This document shows positions 1 through 57,493 of a DNA stretch of 64,000 bases, one piece after another (within the stretch, counting starts at the first letter, position 1; every line of letters begins with the position of its first letter). This stretch comes from Patescibacteria group bacterium (GTDB lineage Bacteria; Patescibacteriota; Gracilibacteria; BD1-5; UBA2023). The position numbers were made by a program, and so were the translations under genes. The notes beneath the pieces are model-generated. The model had not been told where the DNA came from and ran no database searches. It worked only from the letters and a program-made list of their open reading frames with translations. The stretch lies in NCBI GenBank assembly GCA_031539225.1, contig JAVKLJ010000003.1:11069-75068 (forward strand), given 5' to 3'.

Positions 1-252
1 GAAAAATCCTCGTTCATCGAGTATTCCCTGTTCGATAAGTGCGTCAATATTTTTTGTAGGGAGCTTTTTCTTTGGGAAAGCTTCCTTATTTTGCATATAT
101 CGAGTTCGCTTCTTATAGGAAAGATTGAAGCGAGATTGTTTATTTTCATTTCATGTATAGACAAGTGCTGACTTTTTCTTTCATTTAGAAAGCTTTCGTG
201 CAGCTGCTTGTTTTTTTACGAGTCGTGCAGAGAGTCCGTGACTGTTTGCCAT
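1..252 (-). CDS. hypothetical basic protein; the C-terminal part lies outside the window
   Basis: The minus frame is open from ATG (250-252) to position 1 if TGA=Gly (in-frame TGA at 181-183 and 151-153). It starts MANSHGLSARLVKKQAAARKLSKGKKK. No family recognised. Confidence 0.35.
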
Positions 253-295: not shown

Positions 296-374
296 TGGAG
301 CGGGGGAACGGGTTCGAACCGTCACACCCAAGGGTTGAAGCCTTAGTACACTCACTCTTTTATGTTACCCCCGC
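296..374 (-). tRNA. tRNA with anticodon UCA (reads UGA) and Gly-type identity elements
   Basis: Hand-folded cloverleaf. Acceptor stem GCGGGGG/CCCCCGC, T-arm GACGG-TTCGAAC-CCGTT, anticodon stem TAAGG/CCTTG, loop CUUCAAC (U33, anticodon UCA, A37). Discriminator U73 with G1:C72, C2:G71, G3:C70. Short variable loop and encoded CCA. The D-loop lacks an obvious GG. Confidence 0.85.
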
Positions 375-407: not shown

Positions 408-481
408 TGGAGGCACCTGCCGGAGTCGAACCGGCCTCCAAAGCTTTGCAGGCTTCTGTATGACCGCTCTACCAAGGCGCC
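408..481 (-). tRNA. tRNA-Cys (GCA)
   Basis: Acceptor stem GGCGCCT/AGGTGCC, anticodon stem GAAGC/GCTTT with loop CTGCAAA, T-arm GCCGG-TTCGACT-CCGGC, discriminator U, encoded CCA. Confidence 0.9.
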
Positions 482-5509: not shown

Positions 5510-5707
5510 ATGAAACTCAAAACTCACTCTGGCGCTAAAAAACGCGTAAAAATCACTGGAACAGGAAAATATATCGTCGATAAGACTGCTAAAAGACACC
5601 TCCTCAAAGACAAATCAACAAAAGCAAAAGGTCGTGATAAATATGGTCATGTTCTTCATGATACAAATACTCTTGAAGCACGACTCTCACTTCCATATGG
5701 AAGATAA
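5510..5707 (+). CDS. rpmI: 50S ribosomal protein L35
   Basis: MKLKTHSGAKKRVKITGTGK... Complete ORF. Confidence 0.95.
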   Translation: MKLKTHSGAKKRVKITGTGKYIVDKTAKRHLLKDKSTKAKGRDKYGHVLHDTNTLEARLSLPYGR

Positions 5708-5756
5708 TACTATTTAGAAAATTGATTTTCCTTTAATTTTATAACTCTCTCAAATT

Positions 5757-6101
5757 ATGACTCGAGTAAAACGCGGTGTAATGACCCATAAAAGACATAA
5801 GAATATCCTCGCTCTTGCAAAGGGATATCGTCGAATGAACGGGAATGTCTATTCTCGTGCAAAAACAGCTATCATGAAAGCTGGATCAAATGCTTATATT
5901 GGTCGCAAACAAAAGAAAAGACAGTTCCGTCGTCTTTGGACAGTTCGTCTCAATAACGCAGCTCGTCTCAATGGTATGACTTACTCTACATTTATCCATG
6001 CTATGTATACAAAGCGTGTGGGACTCAATCGAAAGGTTCTTTCAAATCTTGCGATTACTAATCCTGATGTCTTTGCAAAAGTTGTTGAGTTTGTAAAATA
6101 A
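5757..6101 (+). CDS. rplT: 50S ribosomal protein L20
   Basis: MTRVKRGVMTHKRHKNILALAKGYRR... Completes the conserved infC-rpmI-rplT order. Confidence 0.95.
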   Translation: MTRVKRGVMTHKRHKNILALAKGYRRMNGNVYSRAKTAIMKAGSNAYIGRKQKKRQFRRLWTVRLNNAARLNGMTYSTFIHAMYTKRVGLNRKVLSNLAITNPDVFAKVVEFVK

Positions 6102-17982: not shown

Positions 17983-18058
17983 TGGTGCACCCAGTAGGGT
18001 TCGAACCTACAACCAACGGTTTCGAAGACCGCTACTCTTCCAATTGAGCTATGGGTGC
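17983..18058 (-). tRNA. tRNA-Arg (UCG)
   Basis: GCACCCA acceptor stem, anticodon stem GCGGT/ACCGT with loop CTTCGAA, T-arm AGGTTCGAACCCT, encoded CCA. Confidence 0.85.
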
Positions 18059-18644: not shown

Positions 18645-19769
18645 TTATGCTTCGAGCGCTTCTGGTGGGATTTCCACAGGAGTTGCTGATGGAACATAGT
18701 TTGGATCAAGTGCCTTGAGAGAGAGACCGATTCTTTTTCCGACAGAATCGAAAGTAATAATTCGAGCCTTCATCATCTCACCAACATGAACCTTGTCTTC
18801 GATACCTGCCATCATTTCTGATTGGATTTCAGAAATATGGATAAGACCAGAGATTCCTCCATCGAGTTCGAGAAATATACCGAACTGAGAAAGACGAAGA
18901 ACTGGAGCTTCGATGATATCACCAACTTGGTACTTATCAGAGAGAACTTGCCAAGGATTTGATTTGAGTCTCTTGATAGAGAGAGAGATTTTTTCTCCTT
19001 CGATACCAATAATCTGAACTGTTACCTTATCACCGATACGAGCGTGCTTGTGAGGGTTATTTACATGACCCCAGTCGATTTCAGAGACATGAACGAGACC
19101 TTCAACTCCGTGGAATGTAACGAAGAGTCCGTATGTGAGGATTCCTGATACAACACCTTCGACAACATCACCGATTTTGATCGTCTGAAGTGCCTGTGAT
19201 CGTTGTTCTTCGATTGCTGCTTTTTCTGAGAAGATAATCTTCTTCCCTGATTGATCAACATTGATAACACGAACATGGAAAGGTTTTCCAACGAGCTTGT
19301 TGAGATGTTCGAGGATTTTTTCTGGATTTGCGTTTTCGACGCGTGGATAGTGAACTGGAGTGAGTTGAGAAACTGGGATAAAACCCTTGATTCCATCAAG
19401 ATCAATCAGAAGACCACCCTTGTTTGCTTCGTTTGGAACAACAGTAATAATTTCTTTTGTATCAAAATTTGAGTGGAGCTTTTCGATAAGTTTCACTTGT
19501 GAAGCCTTACGAAGAGAGAGGTGAATAAGTCCACTATGAGCATCATCACCAATGATGATAGACTCAATACGGTCTCCAGGCTTAATATCAGTTGTATCTT
19601 CAGTAGAAGATTGCATATGATTTCCTGTAATAATACCCGTAAATTGACCTTCGAGGTCTACGAGAATCATTTTTTGATTTGAGACAACGACACTACCACC
19701 AACCACATCACCAACATTATATGACTGAATCGGACTTGCCGATTCGAGATCTTTTGCGAAATCTGACAT
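18645..19769 (-). CDS. rpsA: 30S ribosomal protein S1 (four S1 domains)
   Basis: Complete 374-aa ORF with no TGA. Repeated S1-domain pattern (G.V..G.V......G.FV.L....G..H.SE). Confidence 0.85.
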   Translation of the reverse strand: MSDFAKDLESASPIQSYNVGDVVGGSVVVSNQKMILVDLEGQFTGIITGNHMQSSTEDTTDIKPGDRIESIIIGDDAHSGLIHLSLRKASQVKLIEKLHSNFDTKEIITVVPNEANKGGLLIDLDGIKGFIPVSQLTPVHYPRVENANPEKILEHLNKLVGKPFHVRVINVDQSGKKIIFSEKAAIEEQRSQALQTIKIGDVVEGVVSGILTYGLFVTFHGVEGLVHVSEIDWGHVNNPHKHARIGDKVTVQIIGIEGEKISLSIKRLKSNPWQVLSDKYQVGDIIEAPVLRLSQFGIFLELDGGISGLIHISEIQSEMMAGIEDKVHVGEMMKARIITFDSVGKRIGLSLKALDPNYVPSATPVEIPPEALEA

Positions 19770-30230: not shown

Positions 30231-30470
30231 CTAGCCACGGAATCTTTCAGTAATACCTGGAAGAGTTACGATACGCGCATTTCCACCAGCAACATTGTGG
30301 TGCTTACTTTTACCGCGCACATTTTTGAATCGATTTGGGTAGCTTACAGCGAGTACATGACGGCCTTTTCTTCGGCGAGCCTTGAGTACTTTTTGTCCGT
30401 CTACAGTTGATTTGCGTGCGAGAAATCCATGAACGCGAAGGCGTTTTCTTTTCTTGAGTTTTCCGATCAT
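30231..30470 (-). CDS. rpmH: 50S ribosomal protein L34 with an unusual 35-aa C-terminal extension
   Basis: [38 protein letters not shown] is the L34 core. The frame stays open for 35 more codons to TAG at 30231-30233. Confidence 0.8.
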
Positions 30471-38697: not shown

Positions 38698-41601
38698 TTA
38701 TTTTGTAAATGTAGCACTAGCACCAGCTGTACCAACATAAGTTTCAGAATCAGCAACACCACCTACAGAGTAGTAGAGTTGTTTTACAGAAATCTGAAGT
38801 TGACCACCTGCAGGAAGAAGGTTAGCAGAATCGACATATACTTCGAATTCAACCGTACCATTATTCTTGTCAGCTGTCATATTAGTCGTAAGACCAGTAA
38901 CAGCAACAGTTTTATCTATAGCAGGAACTGAACCACTACCAGAAGAGACACCAGTCTGTCCAAATGTATTTGAACTTCCAAGATCACGGAGGTAAGCAGA
39001 AGCAGTGTATGAAGTATTACCTGGAAGGGCAGTCTTGAAGTCAAACTTAGCACCTGTAAGAGTAATACCAGTATTTGAGTCAGGGTTAGTAACCTTAACC
39101 TTAAATACATTTTCAGATACAGCAGTTACGAGAACTGTTGGAGCAACAGTACCGATAGTGTAAGATTTGAATGATACACCAGCAGTTGTAGGAGTAACAG
39201 CAGTAGAGTTAGAATCACGAACTACAGTAAGATTACCAGTAGAAGTCGAGAGAATAAGTGTCTTTCCGTAAGAAGATTCAAGTGAAGTTGTAGTAAGAAC
39301 AACCTTATAGTTCTTTGTTACATCTTGACCGATAGTATCGTTCATGCTATCAATAGTAAGAGTATTATTAGAGATAGTAGCTGTAGCAGAGATCTGAGCG
39401 TTTGTAGCAACATCAACGAGTTTTACACTTGAACTACTACTTGCAATACCTGAAAGGCTTGCAGTACCACCATTTGTAAAAATAACTTTTTGAAGACGAG
39501 CAGCTTCATTACGAGCAGTGATAGCAAATCGACCGATTTCTTGGTCAGCAGAGCTATAGAGACGAGCAGTAGAAGGAGCAGCGACAGTAGCAGTCTTGAG
39601 TTCAACTTGTGAAGTATTTACAGTAATCTTGTCACCAGTGAGGTTTTGACCAGCACCGATAGAAGCTTGATTATTGCTTGAATCACGAACATCAGAGAAT
39701 GCAACTACGAATGTAAATGCACCATTTACATTAGCATTGTTCTTTACAGAACCTTCAATAGTAAGAGTACCTTTATTTGTAGAATCAACAACAAATGAAA
39801 CAGTCTTAGCTTGAGCTACACCATTTGCAAGAGTTGTGAGAGTACCGATTTCAGAACCATTAAGCTTGATAGAGAGTTGATCATTTACGAACGCGTCAAT
39901 ACCAGAACCTGTAATAGTAGGAGTAACAGTAATACCACGAACTGTAAGTGGAACAGCAGATGTTACAGTTCCGTTGAAGAGCTTAACATTGTTTGAACCA
40001 GGAGCAATAGTGAGACTACCTGTAGAGTTCTTTGTAAATGTAACTTCTACATTAGTAAACTGAAGTGATGCACCTGTAGATGGGCTTGTAACCACCTGAG
40101 TAGCATAACCAGTTGTAAGTTCAGAAGCGTTTACATCAGTACTAGAGTCAAACTTGAATCCGAGGATTGTAGAGCTAGAGTCAACGAGGACATCGGCTTT
40201 AAGTTCGTAAGTTTGAGTGTTTCCAGCTGTAAGAACATCTGAAAGACCAGATACAGAGAGCTTTTCGTTAGACATAGAGACAGTACCAACTGCTACACCA
40301 TTTCGGTAAAGAACTGGGTTAGAAAGTCGTTTTGTAAAGTCAGTAGATCCAGAACGAGTAAGAGTAAATCCAGTAACCTTAGTATCTCGTGAACCAGCAG
40401 CAACATCAACCTTAAGGATTGATTGAGCAGCCTTACCAGGAGTTACAGTACCAGCAGAAGCTGTAAGAGTTACAGTAGTCTTAGCAGTAGTGTAAGAAGT
40501 AGTATTAAGGAGACCGAGAGTTACAGGAGCACCAGTAACAGTTCCGTCAGCATTTACTGCATCAAGAGCGAATTGGTGTTGACTATTCTGAGCACCAGAG
40601 AGGTTAACGAGGATATCAACTGAAGTTGATGTTCCAGCCTTAACAACGAGTGCAGGAGAGAAGTAAACATTACCCTTTTGAGAAGTAGAGTTGTAGTAGT
40701 CAGCAGAAGAAGAGATGATAACACCACTCTGAGAAGCACGGATACCGTTAGTATCAGTAATATCAGAAGATGCACCAAGACCAGATCGGCTTACGATAAG
40801 AGATCGAACAGTAACATCCTTACCAGCAGAAGCTGTAAGTTTTACTGAACCAACCTTAACGCTTGAAGCGTTCATAGGAACATACTGTGCAACAGCTGTA
40901 CCATCGAGAGCAACTGAGAGAGCTCCACCACCAACTGTAGTAGTTGTACCAGTAGTTGTAGTAGTAGTTCCAGAACCATTAGATGGAGGAACTGTAGGCT
41001 CAGTAGTTGTAGTATCGAGTTGAGCAGCACATGCAGCCATCTTGAATGCTTCACCACGAGATGAAGTAGCATTTGGACGGAAGTATGTAGCAGAAGATGC
41101 ACATCCGAGCTCGTTAGCACGGTTTACATATCCAGCAAGATCACCAAGACCATTGAGGTCTGTGTAACCAGCATCAGTAGTACTAGCAGTTTCACCTACT
41201 GCACCAAGAAGCATTTTTGTCATTTCAGCACGAGTTACAGATGCTGTAGGGCGGAAGTTTGCATTCTTTGTAGAAACAACTCCAGCTTGAGCAAGTGCCT
41301 CGATGTAACCACAAAGGTCACCGAGCTTAGAGCTTACGTCACCGTAAACTGTACCAGAACATTCAGTAGCTGTATAACCACCGAGATTAGCAGTAACTTT
41401 TGCAAGTTCTGCACGAGTAATAGTGTCACCAAGGCGATATGCTGCCTCAGAAGACTGAGTACCGATAACAGCGTTATCAGCGAGGACTGAAGCGTAAGGG
41501 AGGAACTCACTTGCAGCAGACACAACGGAAGTACCGAGTGTAGAAGCAAGAAGAGCAACCATACTTACAGCAGAAGTCATCTTCGTAGAGAAGTTAACCA
41601 T
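38698..41601 (-). CDS. 967-aa S-layer-like surface protein (SLH-like N-terminal modules, Thr-rich linker, Ig-like beta repeats)
   Basis: Uninterrupted standard-code ORF with no TGA. Signal peptide ...ASTLGTSVVSAASEF. Contains FRPTASVTRAEMTKMLLGAVG and FRPNATSSRGEAFKM. Ser/Thr/Val/Gly-rich composition. Confidence 0.8.
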   Translation of the reverse strand: MVNFSTKMTSAVSMVALLASTLGTSVVSAASEFLPYASVLADNAVIGTQSSEAAYRLGDTITRAELAKVTANLGGYTATECSGTVYGDVSSKLGDLCGYIEALAQAGVVSTKNANFRPTASVTRAEMTKMLLGAVGETASTTDAGYTDLNGLGDLAGYVNRANELGCASSATYFRPNATSSRGEAFKMAACAAQLDTTTTEPTVPPSNGSGTTTTTTGTTTTVGGGALSVALDGTAVAQYVPMNASSVKVGSVKLTASAGKDVTVRSLIVSRSGLGASSDITDTNGIRASQSGVIISSSADYYNSTSQKGNVYFSPALVVKAGTSTSVDILVNLSGAQNSQHQFALDAVNADGTVTGAPVTLGLLNTTSYTTAKTTVTLTASAGTVTPGKAAQSILKVDVAAGSRDTKVTGFTLTRSGSTDFTKRLSNPVLYRNGVAVGTVSMSNEKLSVSGLSDVLTAGNTQTYELKADVLVDSSSTILGFKFDSSTDVNASELTTGYATQVVTSPSTGASLQFTNVEVTFTKNSTGSLTIAPGSNNVKLFNGTVTSAVPLTVRGITVTPTITGSGIDAFVNDQLSIKLNGSEIGTLTTLANGVAQAKTVSFVVDSTNKGTLTIEGSVKNNANVNGAFTFVVAFSDVRDSSNNQASIGAGQNLTGDKITVNTSQVELKTATVAAPSTARLYSSADQEIGRFAITARNEAARLQKVIFTNGGTASLSGIASSSSSVKLVDVATNAQISATATISNNTLTIDSMNDTIGQDVTKNYKVVLTTTSLESSYGKTLILSTSTGNLTVVRDSNSTAVTPTTAGVSFKSYTIGTVAPTVLVTAVSENVFKVKVTNPDSNTGITLTGAKFDFKTALPGNTSYTASAYLRDLGSSNTFGQTGVSSGSGSVPAIDKTVAVTGLTTNMTADKNNGTVEFEVYVDSANLLPAGGQLQISVKQLYYSVGGVADSETYVGTAGASATFTK

Positions 41602-43846: not shown

Positions 43847-44641
43847 ATGTATCCACTTATCAACATCTCGGATTCCATACAAATTTATACATTTTGACTC
43901 TGCATGGTGGTTGCTTGGCTTCTCTTTTTTGGGATTCTCCACCACTTTGTTGCTGAAAAATGAATACAAAAACATCCTTTTGGAAATATTGTGAGCTTTA
44001 CTCTTTCAAGTTTCTTCTTTGCAAGAATTTTCTATATCCTCTCAGAATGGAGAAATGAAAAATTTATTTTTGTGAATGTGGTAGAATGATGAGGATTTCT
44101 CCATTTCTTGAGTGAATTTTTTATCACGGATACCTACAAGCTCTCACTCGCAGGGGCCATAGTAGGATTTCTTCTTGTATTTTTCATCATTACAAAACGA
44201 GATAAAAATCCTATAGAAAAATATATAGATGCGCTCGTTCCCGCATTTTTGATTATGGCTGGAATAGGGTACTTCGGCGCTCTCCTTGGTGGTCAAGTGT
44301 ATGGTATTCCTTTCAATTCTGTCTTTTCAATACATTATACAGATAAAAACAGCATAGTACCATTTCAAAATGAACTCTTTCCACTTCCTATACTCTATAG
44401 TATCTGATGTGCCTTGATATACCTCTATCTCAAAAGAATCGAAAAGAAACAACAGCCACCACATGGAACCATGGGGTTTCTCGGTATGGGCATATATGGT
44501 GTTATGCTTTTCTTATGAGAATTCCTGAATGGTTCAAGTGACATGCTCAGCTCAATTTTTTTCATAAATTTTAATCAAGTTATAGGACTGATTTTTATTT
44601 TGTGTGCATTTTTATGAATGATGAAAATAATCCAAAAATAG
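43847..44641 (+). CDS. lgt: prolipoprotein diacylglyceryl transferase
   Basis: Polytopic membrane protein. ARIFYILSEW, GYFGALLGGQVYG, FLGEFLNG. Confidence 0.8.
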
Positions 44642-44688
44642 AAAGAAAACAAACAAAAAAAGAAAATACCGCACGGATTTTCTTTTTT

Positions 44689-46161
44689 TTGTGGTGCATA
44701 GCATTTTTTCTTTGAGTCACGCCTGGTTCACTCGGATCAGAGATTTCTGTATGCTTGATGATGATTATTGTAGGGTTTTTGCTGATAATTTTTGAAATAA
44801 AAAATACCTATAAAATACTCATAATCCTTTGAAATTGCGCACTATGATGAATTTTTTGACTCTTATCTTATTCTGAACACACACTCGACGAATCGATATT
44901 TCTCGAAAAAATACACCAAAACAATCAAAAATTTCATGTCGAAGGAATAGTTGATTCTGTGGCATATAAGGGTGACTTTAGCACAACATATATACTCAGT
45001 ATCGACATGATCGCCAATTGATACAATGCATTGATAAAGGATTCTTCCATCAACTTCGACATACTTGTCGAAGTTCCATCAAATCTCAAAATATATCCAT
45101 GAGAATCTATCGAATTTGAGAGCAAACTCAACGCTATATCCTTATCATGAGATGATTGATTTAAGAAATATGCATTCTGAAAATGAATTTATGGGAAAGC
45201 TCAAGTGACAACATTTATTCGCAAAAATAGTACAGATAAATGAATAATACTGACTATCCAGGAACAAGCGAAACAAGCTATATTTCGGTGATTTCCAAGG
45301 GAGGAAGCGGGAGTAATACTTGGAATGGTTCTTTGAAACATAGATCTCATCACAAAAAATCTCAAAGAGCAATTTCTTTTGTCATGAACTACTCACATTC
45401 TTGTCGTCAGTGGTTCAAATATCGCTTTTGTCATGCTTATAATGAGTATGATATTTCGCTATATATCACTCTGAAGGATATTGCAAATAATCATCATGAT
45501 TCTCTCTTTATTATGATACTGATATTTGGTATGATGGGATACTCCTGTGATACGAGCAACACTTATGGGGGGAGTGAGTTTTTTTGCTATAGAATACGGG
45601 AAAAAGATATCGTCGACAGCGATAATACTCCTGATTGGATTTGTATTGGTATGGATCAATCCTTTTTCACTTGCCTATGATCCTGGATTTTGACTTTCTT
45701 TCGGAGCAACAATAGCAATCATACTCTATCACGCACCACTCGAAAAAATACTCATAACAATAAAAATACCAAAAATAGTATCATCTATCCTTGCTGTGAC
45801 ATTTTCAGCAACAATCGGGAGTCTCCCTGCAACTATATATCATTTTTGAGTGATTGCCACTGGCTCTATAGTATCAAATTTGCTTATATCCGTAGCGGTG
45901 TGATGTATTATGATACTTTGAGCCTTCTATATTATTTCTTCTCTTATTTGAGGATATTTTCTCTATAGTTTAGGATATCTCGTTTATCTGCCCACGACAT
46001 ATATCCTCACAATAACTGATATTTTTGCAAAATATCCCGTTATATCTATCCCTGAAAACTGGAAAAATATTATTTCCATAGCTCTCATTGGATATATCAG
46101 TGCATATATGATAGAACGGGAGATGGGAACTATGAGATACCAAAAAGGTCATGAGCAGTAA
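44689..46161 (+). CDS. comEC: ComEC/Rec2-family DNA internalisation channel protein (short form)
   Basis: Competence-domain motif FLLSGTTHILVVSGSNIAF (the Gly is TGA at 45385-45387), then PVIRATLMG. Ends about 260 aa after the motif with no metallo-beta-lactamase-like region. Start uncertain (TTG at 44689 or ATG at 44758). Confidence 0.7.
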
Positions 46162-54661: not shown

Positions 54662-57493
54662 ATGTCAGAAACTATTGATATTATCTGAGCAGAAACACAC
54701 AATCTCAAAAATATCTCAGTATCCTTTCCAAAAAATTCACTTGTCGTTATTACTGGTGTTTCTGGTTCTGGAAAATCCTCACTTGCTTTTGATACACTCT
54801 ATGCTGAGGGACAAAAACGATATCTTGAATCTCTTTCGACCTATGCTCGAATGATTATATCAAACATCTCTGAGGCAACTCGTGTTCGTGAAATTCGAGG
54901 ACTTTCACCGACCATAGCAATACACCAAAAAACAGTTTCAAACAACCCTCGTTCGACAGTTTGAACAATCACTGAGATATATGACTTCTATAGACTTTTA
55001 TTTGCAACAATAGGAAATCCCCATTGTCCAAATCATCCAGAAATACTTCTCAAGAAAAGTACTCTTCAAGATGTTGTCGAAACAGTGTCGAAGTTTGTCG
55101 AAGGTACAAAATTTCATATCCTCGTTCCCCTTCCAGATGGTGAGTATAGAGAAGTTGCGGATGTTGCAAAAAAAGTGACTGATATGGGTTTTGTGAGATT
55201 CCAAATTTGAAATCATACTTTTTCTGTAGCGGATTTTGAGGAACAGGATATTTCTCAAAAAGAAAAAATATTTGTCGTTATCGATCGACTTGTAGTCAAA
55301 AAAGATGATGCATTCCATGTGCGTCTTACTGACTCTATTCGAGTAGCACTCGAACATGGTGGACAGATGGTTTCTTTATATGGGGAGGATTTTGGTTTTG
55401 TAGATTTTTCTTTTCACGCCGCTTGTCCGGAGTGTCATTTTTCCCTCCCAGAAGTTACGCTCTCGAATTTCTCTTTTAATTCACATCATGGTGCGTGTGA
55501 TGTGTGCCATGGACTCGGATCATCTACTACATTCCTAGAGGCTGATGTCATCAGCTCTGGGCTCAGTCTTGCCGAATGAGCAATTCTCCCATGGCAATCC
55601 CATCCATACTATACTCTTCTTTTAGAGGCTGTATGTCTGAAAGAGGGTATTCCATTTGAGAAATCATGGAAAAGCCTTTCAGAAAAAGACAAAAAAAAGA
55701 TTCTTTATGGTGTTCCTGGGAGCTTTGAGATTTCCTATATAGGGAAACACAACGACGGGAAAATACATAAATCGAAGTATGAGTGACTTATTCCAAATCT
55801 CGAACGCAGATTTGTCGAAGCAGAAAGTGCAAATGATGCGTATATGAAACGAATTGCTAACTTCGCCACCGAGCAAATTTGTCGAAGTTGTGAAGGATAT
55901 AGACTCCAGAAACCATTCCTGAGTATACGAATCAAGTGAAAAAATATTGGCGAACTTGCATCTATGAGTGTCGAAGATTCTCGAATATTCTTTCATGATC
56001 TTGTCCTGAATGCTTCAGAACAACATATCGCTGCGCCAATCCTCAAAAATATTACTGAACGGCTCGAATTTCTTGCCGGAGTCTGACTCGAATATGTTAC
56101 CCTTGCTCGACGCGCCAATACACTCTCATGAGGTGAATCTCAGCGAATCCGTCTGGCGACGCAGATAGGAACGAGACTCGAGTGAATCATCTATGTTCTC
56201 GATGAGCCATCTATATGACTTCATCCACGAGATAATGATATGCTTACTGCCAATCTTAAGAGACTTGCTTCTATAGGAAATACTGTCATAGTTGTCGAAC
56301 ATGACGAAGATATCATGCGAGAAAGTGATTATATTGTCGATATTTGACCTGGTGCTGGAGTACACGGGTGACAAGTATTATTTTCTGGTACATATAAGGA
56401 ACTTCTCAAATCCGATACAGAAACTGCCAAGTATCTCTGAAATATCAAAAAAGTTCAAAGAAAGAATCCTGTCACAAAAGCACCAAAGCAATTTATAGAA
56501 ATATATGGTGCAAGAGAAAATAACCTCAAAAATATAAATGTACGAATCCCTCTAGAATGTATGACCGTTGTTACTGGTGTTTCTGGTTCTGGAAAGTCCT
56601 CTCTGATTATGGATATTTTGGCGAATAAGCTCCTCAATTATTTTAATGGTAGTTCTATATCCGTCTGACAACATGACCGTGTCGAAGGTATGGCGAATGT
56701 CGACAAGACAATTATTATAGATCAGTCCCCTATTGGAAAAACGCCACATTCGAACATCGCCACATATACGGGAGTATTTACTTTTATCCGTGAAGTATTT
56801 GCGGCTTCACTCGATGCGCAGAAGCGAGGTTTCTGACCGGGAAGATTTTCGTTTAATACGAAGGGAGGTCGATGTGAGGTATGTGAAGGAAGTGGTACGA
56901 AAAAAATAGAGATGCACTTTCTCCCTGATGTCTATGTCGAATGTGAGTCATGTTCTGGAACTCGCTACAATCCTGAAACTCTTCAGATACAATTTAAGTG
57001 AAAAAATATCGCCGAAGTGCTCGATATGACTGTCGAAGATGCTCATGAATTTTTTGCAAATTTTCCGCGTATTCGTCGCGTACTCGATGTCCTCGTGGAT
57101 GTCTGACTTGGGTATATCCGTCTTGGACAATCAGCACCGACACTCTCAGGTGGTGAATCTCAGCGTATCAAACTCGCATTTGATCTCGCGAAGCGCTCAA
57201 CAGGAAAAACTCTCTATATCCTCGATGAACCGACAACAGGACTCCATTTTTCTGATGTACAGAAGCTCCTTGATATCCTTGATAGACTCGTCGAAAAAGG
57301 AAATACCGTATTGGTTATCGAACATAACCTCGACATCATCGCCAATGCGGATGCCATCATCGACATAGGCATGGAGTGATGACACAGATGAGGAAATCTC
57401 GTATTTGCATGACCTCGTGATAAACTCCTCTCTGTCGAAGAAAGCTATACCGCGAAGGCACTCAGAAGGTATATGGAAAATAAAAAATCATAG
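54662..57493 (+). CDS. uvrA: excinuclease ABC subunit A
   Basis: Two ABC modules ([12 protein letters not shown] twice, LSGGESQR twice) and zinc-finger Cys pairs. Confidence 0.95.

Follow-up and report, generated by a model that had tools for sequence, protein, structure and literature searches.

Which amino acid is inserted by the tRNA with anticodon UCA that is encoded near one end of the 64,000-nucleotide stretch of DNA analysed here (the window), and is UGA in the genes around it still a stop codon? We conclude that positions 296-374 are very probably the tRNA-Gly(UCA) gene of a bacterium using genetic code 25, which belongs to Ca. Gracilibacteria in the NCBI taxonomy and to the GTDB class JAEDAM01, probably the order BD1-5. 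The initial annotation had already described this tRNA as the glycine decoder of a recoded stop, and the claim is supported by the identity nucleotides, by UGA at glycine positions and by homologues. The gene, its parts and the adjoining tRNA gene are:

296-374, minus strand: very probable tRNA-Gly(UCA) gene, 79 nt long together with its CCA (ARAGORN; Rfam RF00005)
368-374, minus strand: 5' strand of the acceptor stem, GCGGGGG
352-361, minus strand: D-loop AAAAGAGUGA, 10 nt, without adjacent G18G19
328-346, minus strand: anticodon arm with the 6-bp stem CUAAGG/CCUUGG (ARAGORN drawing, RNAalifold consensus)
334-340, minus strand: anticodon loop CUUCAAC (C32 U33 U34 C35 A36 A37 C38)
336-338, minus strand: anticodon U34-C35-A36, complementary to the UGA codon (direct sequence reading and ARAGORN)
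299-306, minus strand: 3' strand of the acceptor stem, C66-C72, pairing with 368-374, and discriminator U73 (at 299)
296-298, minus strand: genomically encoded 3' CCA
408-481, minus strand: tRNA-Cys(GCA) (ARAGORN; Rfam, 54.1 bits)

Read on the minus strand, 296-374 divides into GCGGGGG UA ACAU AAAAGAGUGA GUGU A CUAAGG CUUCAAC CCUUGG GUGU GACGG UUCGAAC CCGUU CCCCCGC U CCA, and the 76 nt that precede the CCA exceed the usual length by 3 nt. ARAGORN, which the initial annotation had named as a check, returned a tRNA with the anticodon tca at tRNA position 37 (37-39), its label “SeC” being automatic; together with the direct minus-strand reading, this bears out the anticodon loop CUUCAAC (UCA) that had been folded by hand. 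The Rfam tRNA model RF00005 matches 299-374 on the minus strand with 45.8 bits (E=1.5e-6; gathering score 29). Both ARAGORN and RNAalifold draw a 6-bp anticodon stem, which leaves a variable loop of 4 nt; alternatively, the stem can be read as 5 bp, which adds a linker base and enlarges the variable loop to 5 nt. The acceptor pairs G1:C72, C2:G71 and G3:C70 and the discriminator U73 were read directly from the sequence. They are the nucleotides of the glycine rule of Shulgina & Eddy 2021 (after Giege 1998), so that the earlier assignment of a glycine identity set holds as well.

The window contains five tRNA genes according to ARAGORN, none of them on the plus strand. The CCA is encoded in all five and likewise in all of the at least 73 listed members of the tRNA(UCA) family described below. 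The other four window tRNAs have GG in the D-loop; the D-loop AAAAGAGUGA without GG, flagged beforehand as a structural oddity, is real and is common to all of the at least 73 listed family members. The single-sequence MFE fold of tRNA(UCA) is not the cloverleaf and is no better than the folds of shuffled sequences (z=-1.31). MFE folds often miss the cloverleaf of tRNAs; we give this fold no weight. What supports the cloverleaf is the match to the covariance model, together with covariation in at least 26 distinct homologues.

That UGA is a sense codon in this DNA is apparent from the genes themselves. The window has a GC content of 37.5%, and TGA is its commonest stop triplet (1472, versus 865 TAA and 654 TAG). 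A simple codon-bias gene caller was run on the window under two codes. With TGA as sense codon it returned 51 genes with a mean length of 368 aa and 88% coverage, and with TGA as stop 101 fragments with a mean length of 102 aa and 48.5% coverage. The called genes hold 343 in-frame TGA codons (18.3 per 1000), which would make up 22.7% of their glycine codons if TGA is counted as Gly. Those that end within the window stop at TAA (34) or TAG (15) only.

The identity of the amino acid was addressed by aligning conserved proteins to solved PDB homologues, one homologue for each protein, with TGA written as X. The gene with the largest number of informative positions is:

54662-57493, plus strand: uvrA, a client gene with 21 in-frame TGA codons (best PDB match 2r6f, E=1.3e-286)

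In UvrA, 17 of the 21 TGA positions correspond to Gly in 2r6f, and some of the TGA positions lie in the ABC signature LSGGE and near Walker B. For CTP synthase (PyrG) Gly was found at 3 of 7 TGA positions of 1vco, and for serine hydroxymethyltransferase (GlyA) at 4 of 5 of 7v3d. Summed over the three proteins, 24 of 33 TGA positions are Gly and none is Trp or Cys. The remaining nine, which carry A (three times), D (twice), E, H, K and S in the one homologue compared, appear to be variable positions. The C-terminal ends of UvrA, PyrG and GlyA coincide with those of their homologues. As a second, independent test, orthologous codons in related contigs and genomes were compared. Where a TGA of the window differs in the relative, the relative has GGN in 28 of 32 cases, and in the reverse direction, with TGA in the relative and another codon in the window, GGN was found in 14 of 19. 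Among the orthologous codons compared there was no exchange of TGA with TGG and none with TGY. Due to the dominance of the exchange between TGA and GGN, TGA acts as a synonym of GGN. UGA thus stands for Gly in the genes of the window.

Contigs of the same population or of closely related ones are present in public sequence data. A Logan contig of SRR25831492, the end of which falls inside the tRNA(UCA) gene, is 100% identical over 12.7 kb, contigs of SRR35548080 and SRR24925873 are ~90% and ~93% identical, and a related contig in the JGI metagenome 3300081900 is 99% identical (L001-L004). The Logan contigs carry fragmented genes, TGA having been treated as a stop when they were called; on the JGI contig (L003) the calls are full-length.

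The tRNA itself belongs to a family of which many members could be found. A scan of one genome per GTDB species with the pattern GCGG...YTTCAA...GTTCRA..C...CCGCT gave at least 120 loci. The family of the window tRNA, with 76 nt and the anticodon UCA, is represented at no fewer than 73 of these, in at least 26 distinct sequences. The listed hosts are nearly all Ca. Gracilibacteria, Ca. Peribacteria or Patescibacteria, and include HOT-871 (complete genome) and GN02-872. Over its 76 nt the window tRNA(UCA) is 100% identical to three members (L017, L051, L087), and by gapped alignment it is 94% identical to the gene of HOT-871 (CP017714). The comparison with Gracilibacteria tRNA-Gly(UCA) proposed in the initial annotation accordingly yielded identical genes, which are already contained in three public MAGs of Ca. 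Gracilibacteria (JANNCQ010000087, JAYSSB010000153, JAYVGV010000012).

In an alignment of the at least 26 distinct sequences, 99.1% of the cells pair as the cloverleaf demands, compared with 27-58% after the partners have been slid against each other. Changes on both sides are seen in six pairs, namely 10:25 (AU/GC), 12:23 (AU/UA), 29:41 (AU/GC) and three T-stem pairs, so that compensatory changes fall in the D-stem, the anticodon stem and the T-stem. The same cloverleaf was predicted independently by RNAalifold. The D-loop reads A-A-N-N-G-A-G-Y-G-A in every listed family member and is never GG, and the 6-bp anticodon stem is constant among them. The extra C:G pair atop this stem is invariant in the listed family, and because it never varies it is beyond a covariation test. 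The search pattern fixed GCGG, YTTCAA, GTTCRA..C and CCGCT, and invariance at these positions is therefore by construction. Within the anticodon loop it fixed positions 33-37 and limited position 32 to C or T; C38, the sole position left free, is invariant in all of the at least 26 distinct listed sequences. Since the odd D-loop and the 6-bp stem are constant in the family, we regard them as traits and not as defects. Their constancy, combined with the compensating stems, argues for purifying selection on a working tRNA. Outside the acceptor stem, tRNA(UCA) is 59-63% identical to tRNA-Gly and 56-58% identical to other tRNAs. A body that is barely closer to tRNA-Gly fits the term “divergent”, which Campbell reportedly applied to this tRNA in 2013.

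Other explanations for a tRNA with this anticodon have to be weighed against these data. A tRNA-Trp(UCA), with UGA read as Trp under code 4 as in Mycoplasma and some endosymbionts, would share the anticodon and would suit a lineage of low GC (37.5%) and reduced genome, and the length of open reading frames cannot separate code 4 from code 25. However, Trp was found at 0 of the 33 TGA positions, versus 24 for Gly, the differing codons in relatives are GGN in 28 of 32 cases and TGG in none, and the tRNA has U73 instead of the G73 of bacterial tRNA-Trp, with an acceptor stem of the glycine set. We therefore consider decoding as Trp to be highly improbable. No more credible is a cysteine acceptor. 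It is true that U73, C35 and A36, which are CysRS determinants, are common to this tRNA and to the tRNA-Cys only 33 nt away, and that some CysRS enzymes charge tRNA-Cys(UCA) (Mukai 2016, PMC5389517). But Cys, too, was found at 0 of the 33 positions and exchanges between TGA and TGY are absent, the acceptor stem begins with GCG... and not with GGC... as in the window tRNA-Cys, and adjacency to tRNA-Cys is absent in relatives, whereas adjacency to tRNA-Gly(GCC) occurs in at least 12 of them.

The least probable of the alternatives, to a degree that it can practically be set aside, is a selenocysteine tRNA (selC). ARAGORN prints “tRNA-SeC”, and the anticodon UCA and a 6-bp anticodon stem would agree with it, but this label is given by ARAGORN to any UCA anticodon. 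Bacterial tRNA-Sec has an 8/5 arrangement (a 13-bp acceptor/T branch), a long variable arm and G73. The tRNA described here shows a 7/5 acceptor/T arrangement, a variable loop of 4 nt and U73, which upholds the earlier exclusion of tRNA-Sec on the ground of a short variable loop. Moreover, the Rfam clan competition was won by the general tRNA model, and TGA at 18 per 1000 codons and at glycine positions is incompatible with Sec. Finally, the gene could be a relic or a minor suppressor, with UGA being read mainly by another tRNA, for example a variant of tRNA-Gly(UCC). A D-loop lacking G18G19, on which the usual contact between D-loop and T-loop depends, an unremarkable single-sequence fold and the avoidance of UGA in highly expressed genes (see below) would be in line with this. 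Yet the odd features are constant in at least 73 listed genomes, the stems pair via compensatory changes and ~23% of the Gly codons depend on a UGA reader, and the part of PMC13293708 that summarises Campbell 2013 describes the SR1 orthologue as glycylated by GlyRS and active in vivo. A relic is therefore very unlikely in our view, although somewhat less so than the three readings before it.

With tRNA-Gly(UCA) as the preferred reading, we propose the following route from gene to glycine. The tRNA, whose gene already provides the CCA end, would be transcribed, perhaps jointly with tRNA-Cys. GlyRS would then charge it via G1:C72, C2:G71, G3:C70 and U73 together with C35, as judged from identity elements given in the literature. 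U34-C35-A36 would pair with UGA, so that UGA within genes would become glycine, while TAA and TAG would stay stop codons. Judging from published genomes of this kind, release factor 2 would presumably be lacking, and no competitor would then act at UGA. No release-factor (GGQ) gene was found within the 64-kb window, which is a part of the genome. Several points count against the glycine reading, among them the nine TGA positions aligned with other residues and the tRNA body that is hardly closer to tRNA-Gly than to other tRNAs. Among the elements by which the GlyRS of E. coli identifies its tRNA is the anticodon base C36, as compiled by Giege in 1998, and position 36 of tRNA(UCA) is A36. In addition, U34 could wobble-read UGG (Trp) as well, an issue raised by Shulgina & Eddy 2021 (PMC8629427).

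The proposed route agrees with what is described for related organisms. UGA as glycine codon and a dedicated tRNA-Gly(UCA) were reportedly described in 2013 by Campbell and by Rinke. The work of Campbell is also said to include glycylation by the SR1 GlyRS and UGA read-through in vivo. “Nearly identical genes for tRNA-UCA” were noted in SR1 genomes (Kantor 2013, PMC3812714). By the same identity rule as used here, tRNA(UCA) was assigned as a Gly acceptor in Absconditabacteria and Gracilibacteria, and Gracilibacteria without tRNA(UCA) keep RF2 (Shulgina & Eddy 2021, PMC8629427). The loss of RF2 is a hallmark of bacterial UGA reassignment (PMC8629427; gTranslate preprint), and translation table 25 is assigned to the GTDB class JAEDAM01, which comprises Absconditabacterales and BD1-5 (gTranslate preprint).

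Compared with the code-25 tRNA-Gly(UCA) of SR1 and BD1-5, the tRNA of the window has the same anticodon, the same identity set, a likewise “divergent” body and UGA at conserved Gly positions. Nothing of substance differs in this comparison, which was made with sequences of Gracilibacteria. The surroundings differ, with tRNA-Cys upstream in the window and tRNA-Gly(GCC) downstream in at least 12 relatives. The code-4 tRNA-Trp(UCA) of Mycoplasmatales, Hodgkinia and Zinderia is likewise a dedicated UCA tRNA in organisms with UGA as sense codon, and RF2 is typically lost in that lineage. It is, however, derived from tRNA-Trp, has another amino acid and another identity set, and may read UGG, whereas reading of UGG by the tRNA described here would be an error. 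Canonical tRNA-Gly (GCC/UCC) shares G1:C72, C2:G71, U73, CCA and C35 with tRNA(UCA), has G3:C70 in some copies and A3:U70 in the rest, and is presumably charged by the same GlyRS. Its D-loop AAUUGGCUA contains GG, its anticodon stem has 5 bp and its length is 74 nt, as opposed to the G-A-G D-loop, 6-bp stem and 76 nt of tRNA(UCA), to which it is only 59-63% identical. In laboratory mutants of E. coli, opal suppressors that insert glycine reportedly arose from glyT as single-base variants of tRNA-Gly(UCC), which compete with RF2. Such suppressors and the tRNA of the window are both Gly tRNAs with a UCA anticodon; here, in contrast, the tRNA is long-diverged and dedicated, and the reassignment is genome-wide.

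For practical purposes, the window needs translation table 25, as the standard table breaks its genes into about 100 fragments. Due to the fact that the sequence is already public and belongs to a known code-25 family, the gene is to be regarded as already known. By itself, tRNA(UCA) adds no new biology, the code change having been known since 2013 and the sequence being contained in public MAGs. The interest that is left lies in how a tRNA-Gly with U34 avoids UGG, and in any part that the D-loop and the 6-bp stem have in this. We think it rather doubtful that the constant non-canonical core of the family, consisting of the G-A-G D-loop in place of G18G19, the sixth anticodon-stem pair and C32/C38, is a functional adaptation rather than a product of drift. 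If it were an adaptation, the core might make UGA decoding efficient or might keep U34 from pairing with UGG, which would put Gly in place of Trp. A systematic description of this core was not found in the searched literature, a search outside which Campbell 2013 lay.

Use of the UGA codon (Gly) is strongly uneven among the genes of the window. The unevenness was seen at:

38698-41601, minus strand: coding region with uneven TGA use
18645-19769, minus strand: coding region with uneven TGA use
5510-6101, plus strand: coding region with uneven TGA use
30231-30470, minus strand: coding region with uneven TGA use
44614-46161, plus strand: coding region rich in TGA, encoding a polytopic membrane protein

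A 967-aa SLH-domain protein of the S-layer type, the SLH assignment of which was confirmed, has TGA in 0 of 89 Gly codons (binomial p=1e-10), and ribosomal protein S1 in 0 of 34. Ribosomal proteins L20, L35 and L34 have 0 TGA. At the other extreme, TGA accounts for 24 of 46 Gly codons in the polytopic membrane protein; in two small ORFs it accounts for 7 of 10 and for 6 of 9. Genes that are likely highly expressed avoid UGA, much as they would a minor codon that is slow or risky.

A further codon deserved attention, as a reassignment of CGA/CGG to Trp has been proposed for Absconditabacteria (Shulgina & Eddy 2021, PMC8629427). The corresponding tRNA gene of the window is:

17983-18058, minus strand: tRNA(UCG) with Arg-type A20 and A73

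Among the Arg codons CGA is the most frequent (109 per 10^4), and wherever it was checked in UvrA the homologue has Arg. As CGA stands for Arg in UvrA and tRNA(UCG) has A20 and A73, we reject the change of CGA/CGG to Trp for this genome.

The tRNA-Cys(GCA) that the initial annotation had placed next to tRNA(UCA) does adjoin it; the two genes share one strand, with tRNA-Cys lying 33 nt upstream, and are possibly co-transcribed. This adjacency was not found in relatives; the sole tRNA-Cys within the 8-kb loci is that of L063, more than 1.1 kb off. A scan of positions 1-1300 for promoters and terminators gave results no better than shuffled sequences; its sole -35/-10 match, a weak one, lies upstream of tRNA-Cys at 554-525 on the minus strand. 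On the other side of tRNA(UCA) there is:

1-252, minus strand: 5' part of a basic ORF of ~112 aa (MANSHGL...) that runs off the window edge, with 2 in-frame TGA

In the window this ORF starts 43 nt downstream of tRNA(UCA). The very basic protein (MANSHGL...KKGKKKNY...YGMPR) is conserved downstream of tRNA(UCA) in this sub-lineage and is present in full length in L086, L087, L030, L015, L063, L051, L012 and L084. In 7 of 8 relatives checked it starts 16-25 nt past tRNA(UCA), and in L051 149 nt past it; tRNA-Arg(GCG) comes after the ORF in relatives. The ORF has no match in Pfam or NCBIfam. In at least 12 relatives (L007, L022, L028, L057, L077, L078, L091, L092, L093, L102, L103 and L117), a canonical tRNA-Gly(GCC) lies 6-42 nt downstream of tRNA(UCA), often followed by tRNA-Arg(GCG). 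Some of these adjoining tRNA-Gly(GCC) genes have A3:U70 in place of G3:C70. The pair of tRNA(UCA) and tRNA-Gly(GCC) characterizes another part of the clade, and the lineage of the window is without it.

The pattern scan also revealed UCA anticodons outside the family. In code-11 assemblies that are not Gracilibacteria, an ordinary tRNA-Gly body with a GG D-loop and a 5-bp anticodon stem carries the anticodon UCA:

L068, 269-341: ordinary tRNA-Gly body with UCA
L123, 2860-2933: ordinary tRNA-Gly body with UCA
L121, 596-666: ordinary tRNA-Gly body with UCA
L045, 1799-1871: ordinary tRNA-Gly body with UCA
L006, 16-90: ordinary tRNA-Gly body with UCA
L020, 4985-5055: ordinary tRNA-Gly body with UCA

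In a Gemmatimonadales MAG and a Thalassotalea MAG, this tRNA occupies the slot that is normal for tRNA-Gly in the order Thr-Tyr-Gly-Thr, and in Streptococcus sp. LQJ-218 it is located inside a tRNA array. Contamination or base-call errors might explain these genes, as might strain variation or a role as natural opal suppressors that insert Gly. Three further tRNA-Gly genes (L056 6782-6854, L098 942-1011 and L111 2950-3022) have an anticodon loop of 6 nt, CUUCAA instead of CUUCCAA, and are reported by ARAGORN with a 2-base anticodon. As one of these assemblies is MinION-only, a homopolymer error is likely. In viral contigs the pattern matched 11 times, mostly in unrelated UCA tRNAs and otherwise in other tRNAs or non-tRNA sequences; none of the 11 belongs to the Gracilibacteria tRNA(UCA) family. 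UCA tRNAs with a GCGG...CCGCU acceptor, whose sequences show no relation to that family, were found on seven phage contigs of IMG/VR (L125, L127, L128, L129, L131, L133 and L135), some of them in tRNA arrays, and may represent phage opal suppressors.
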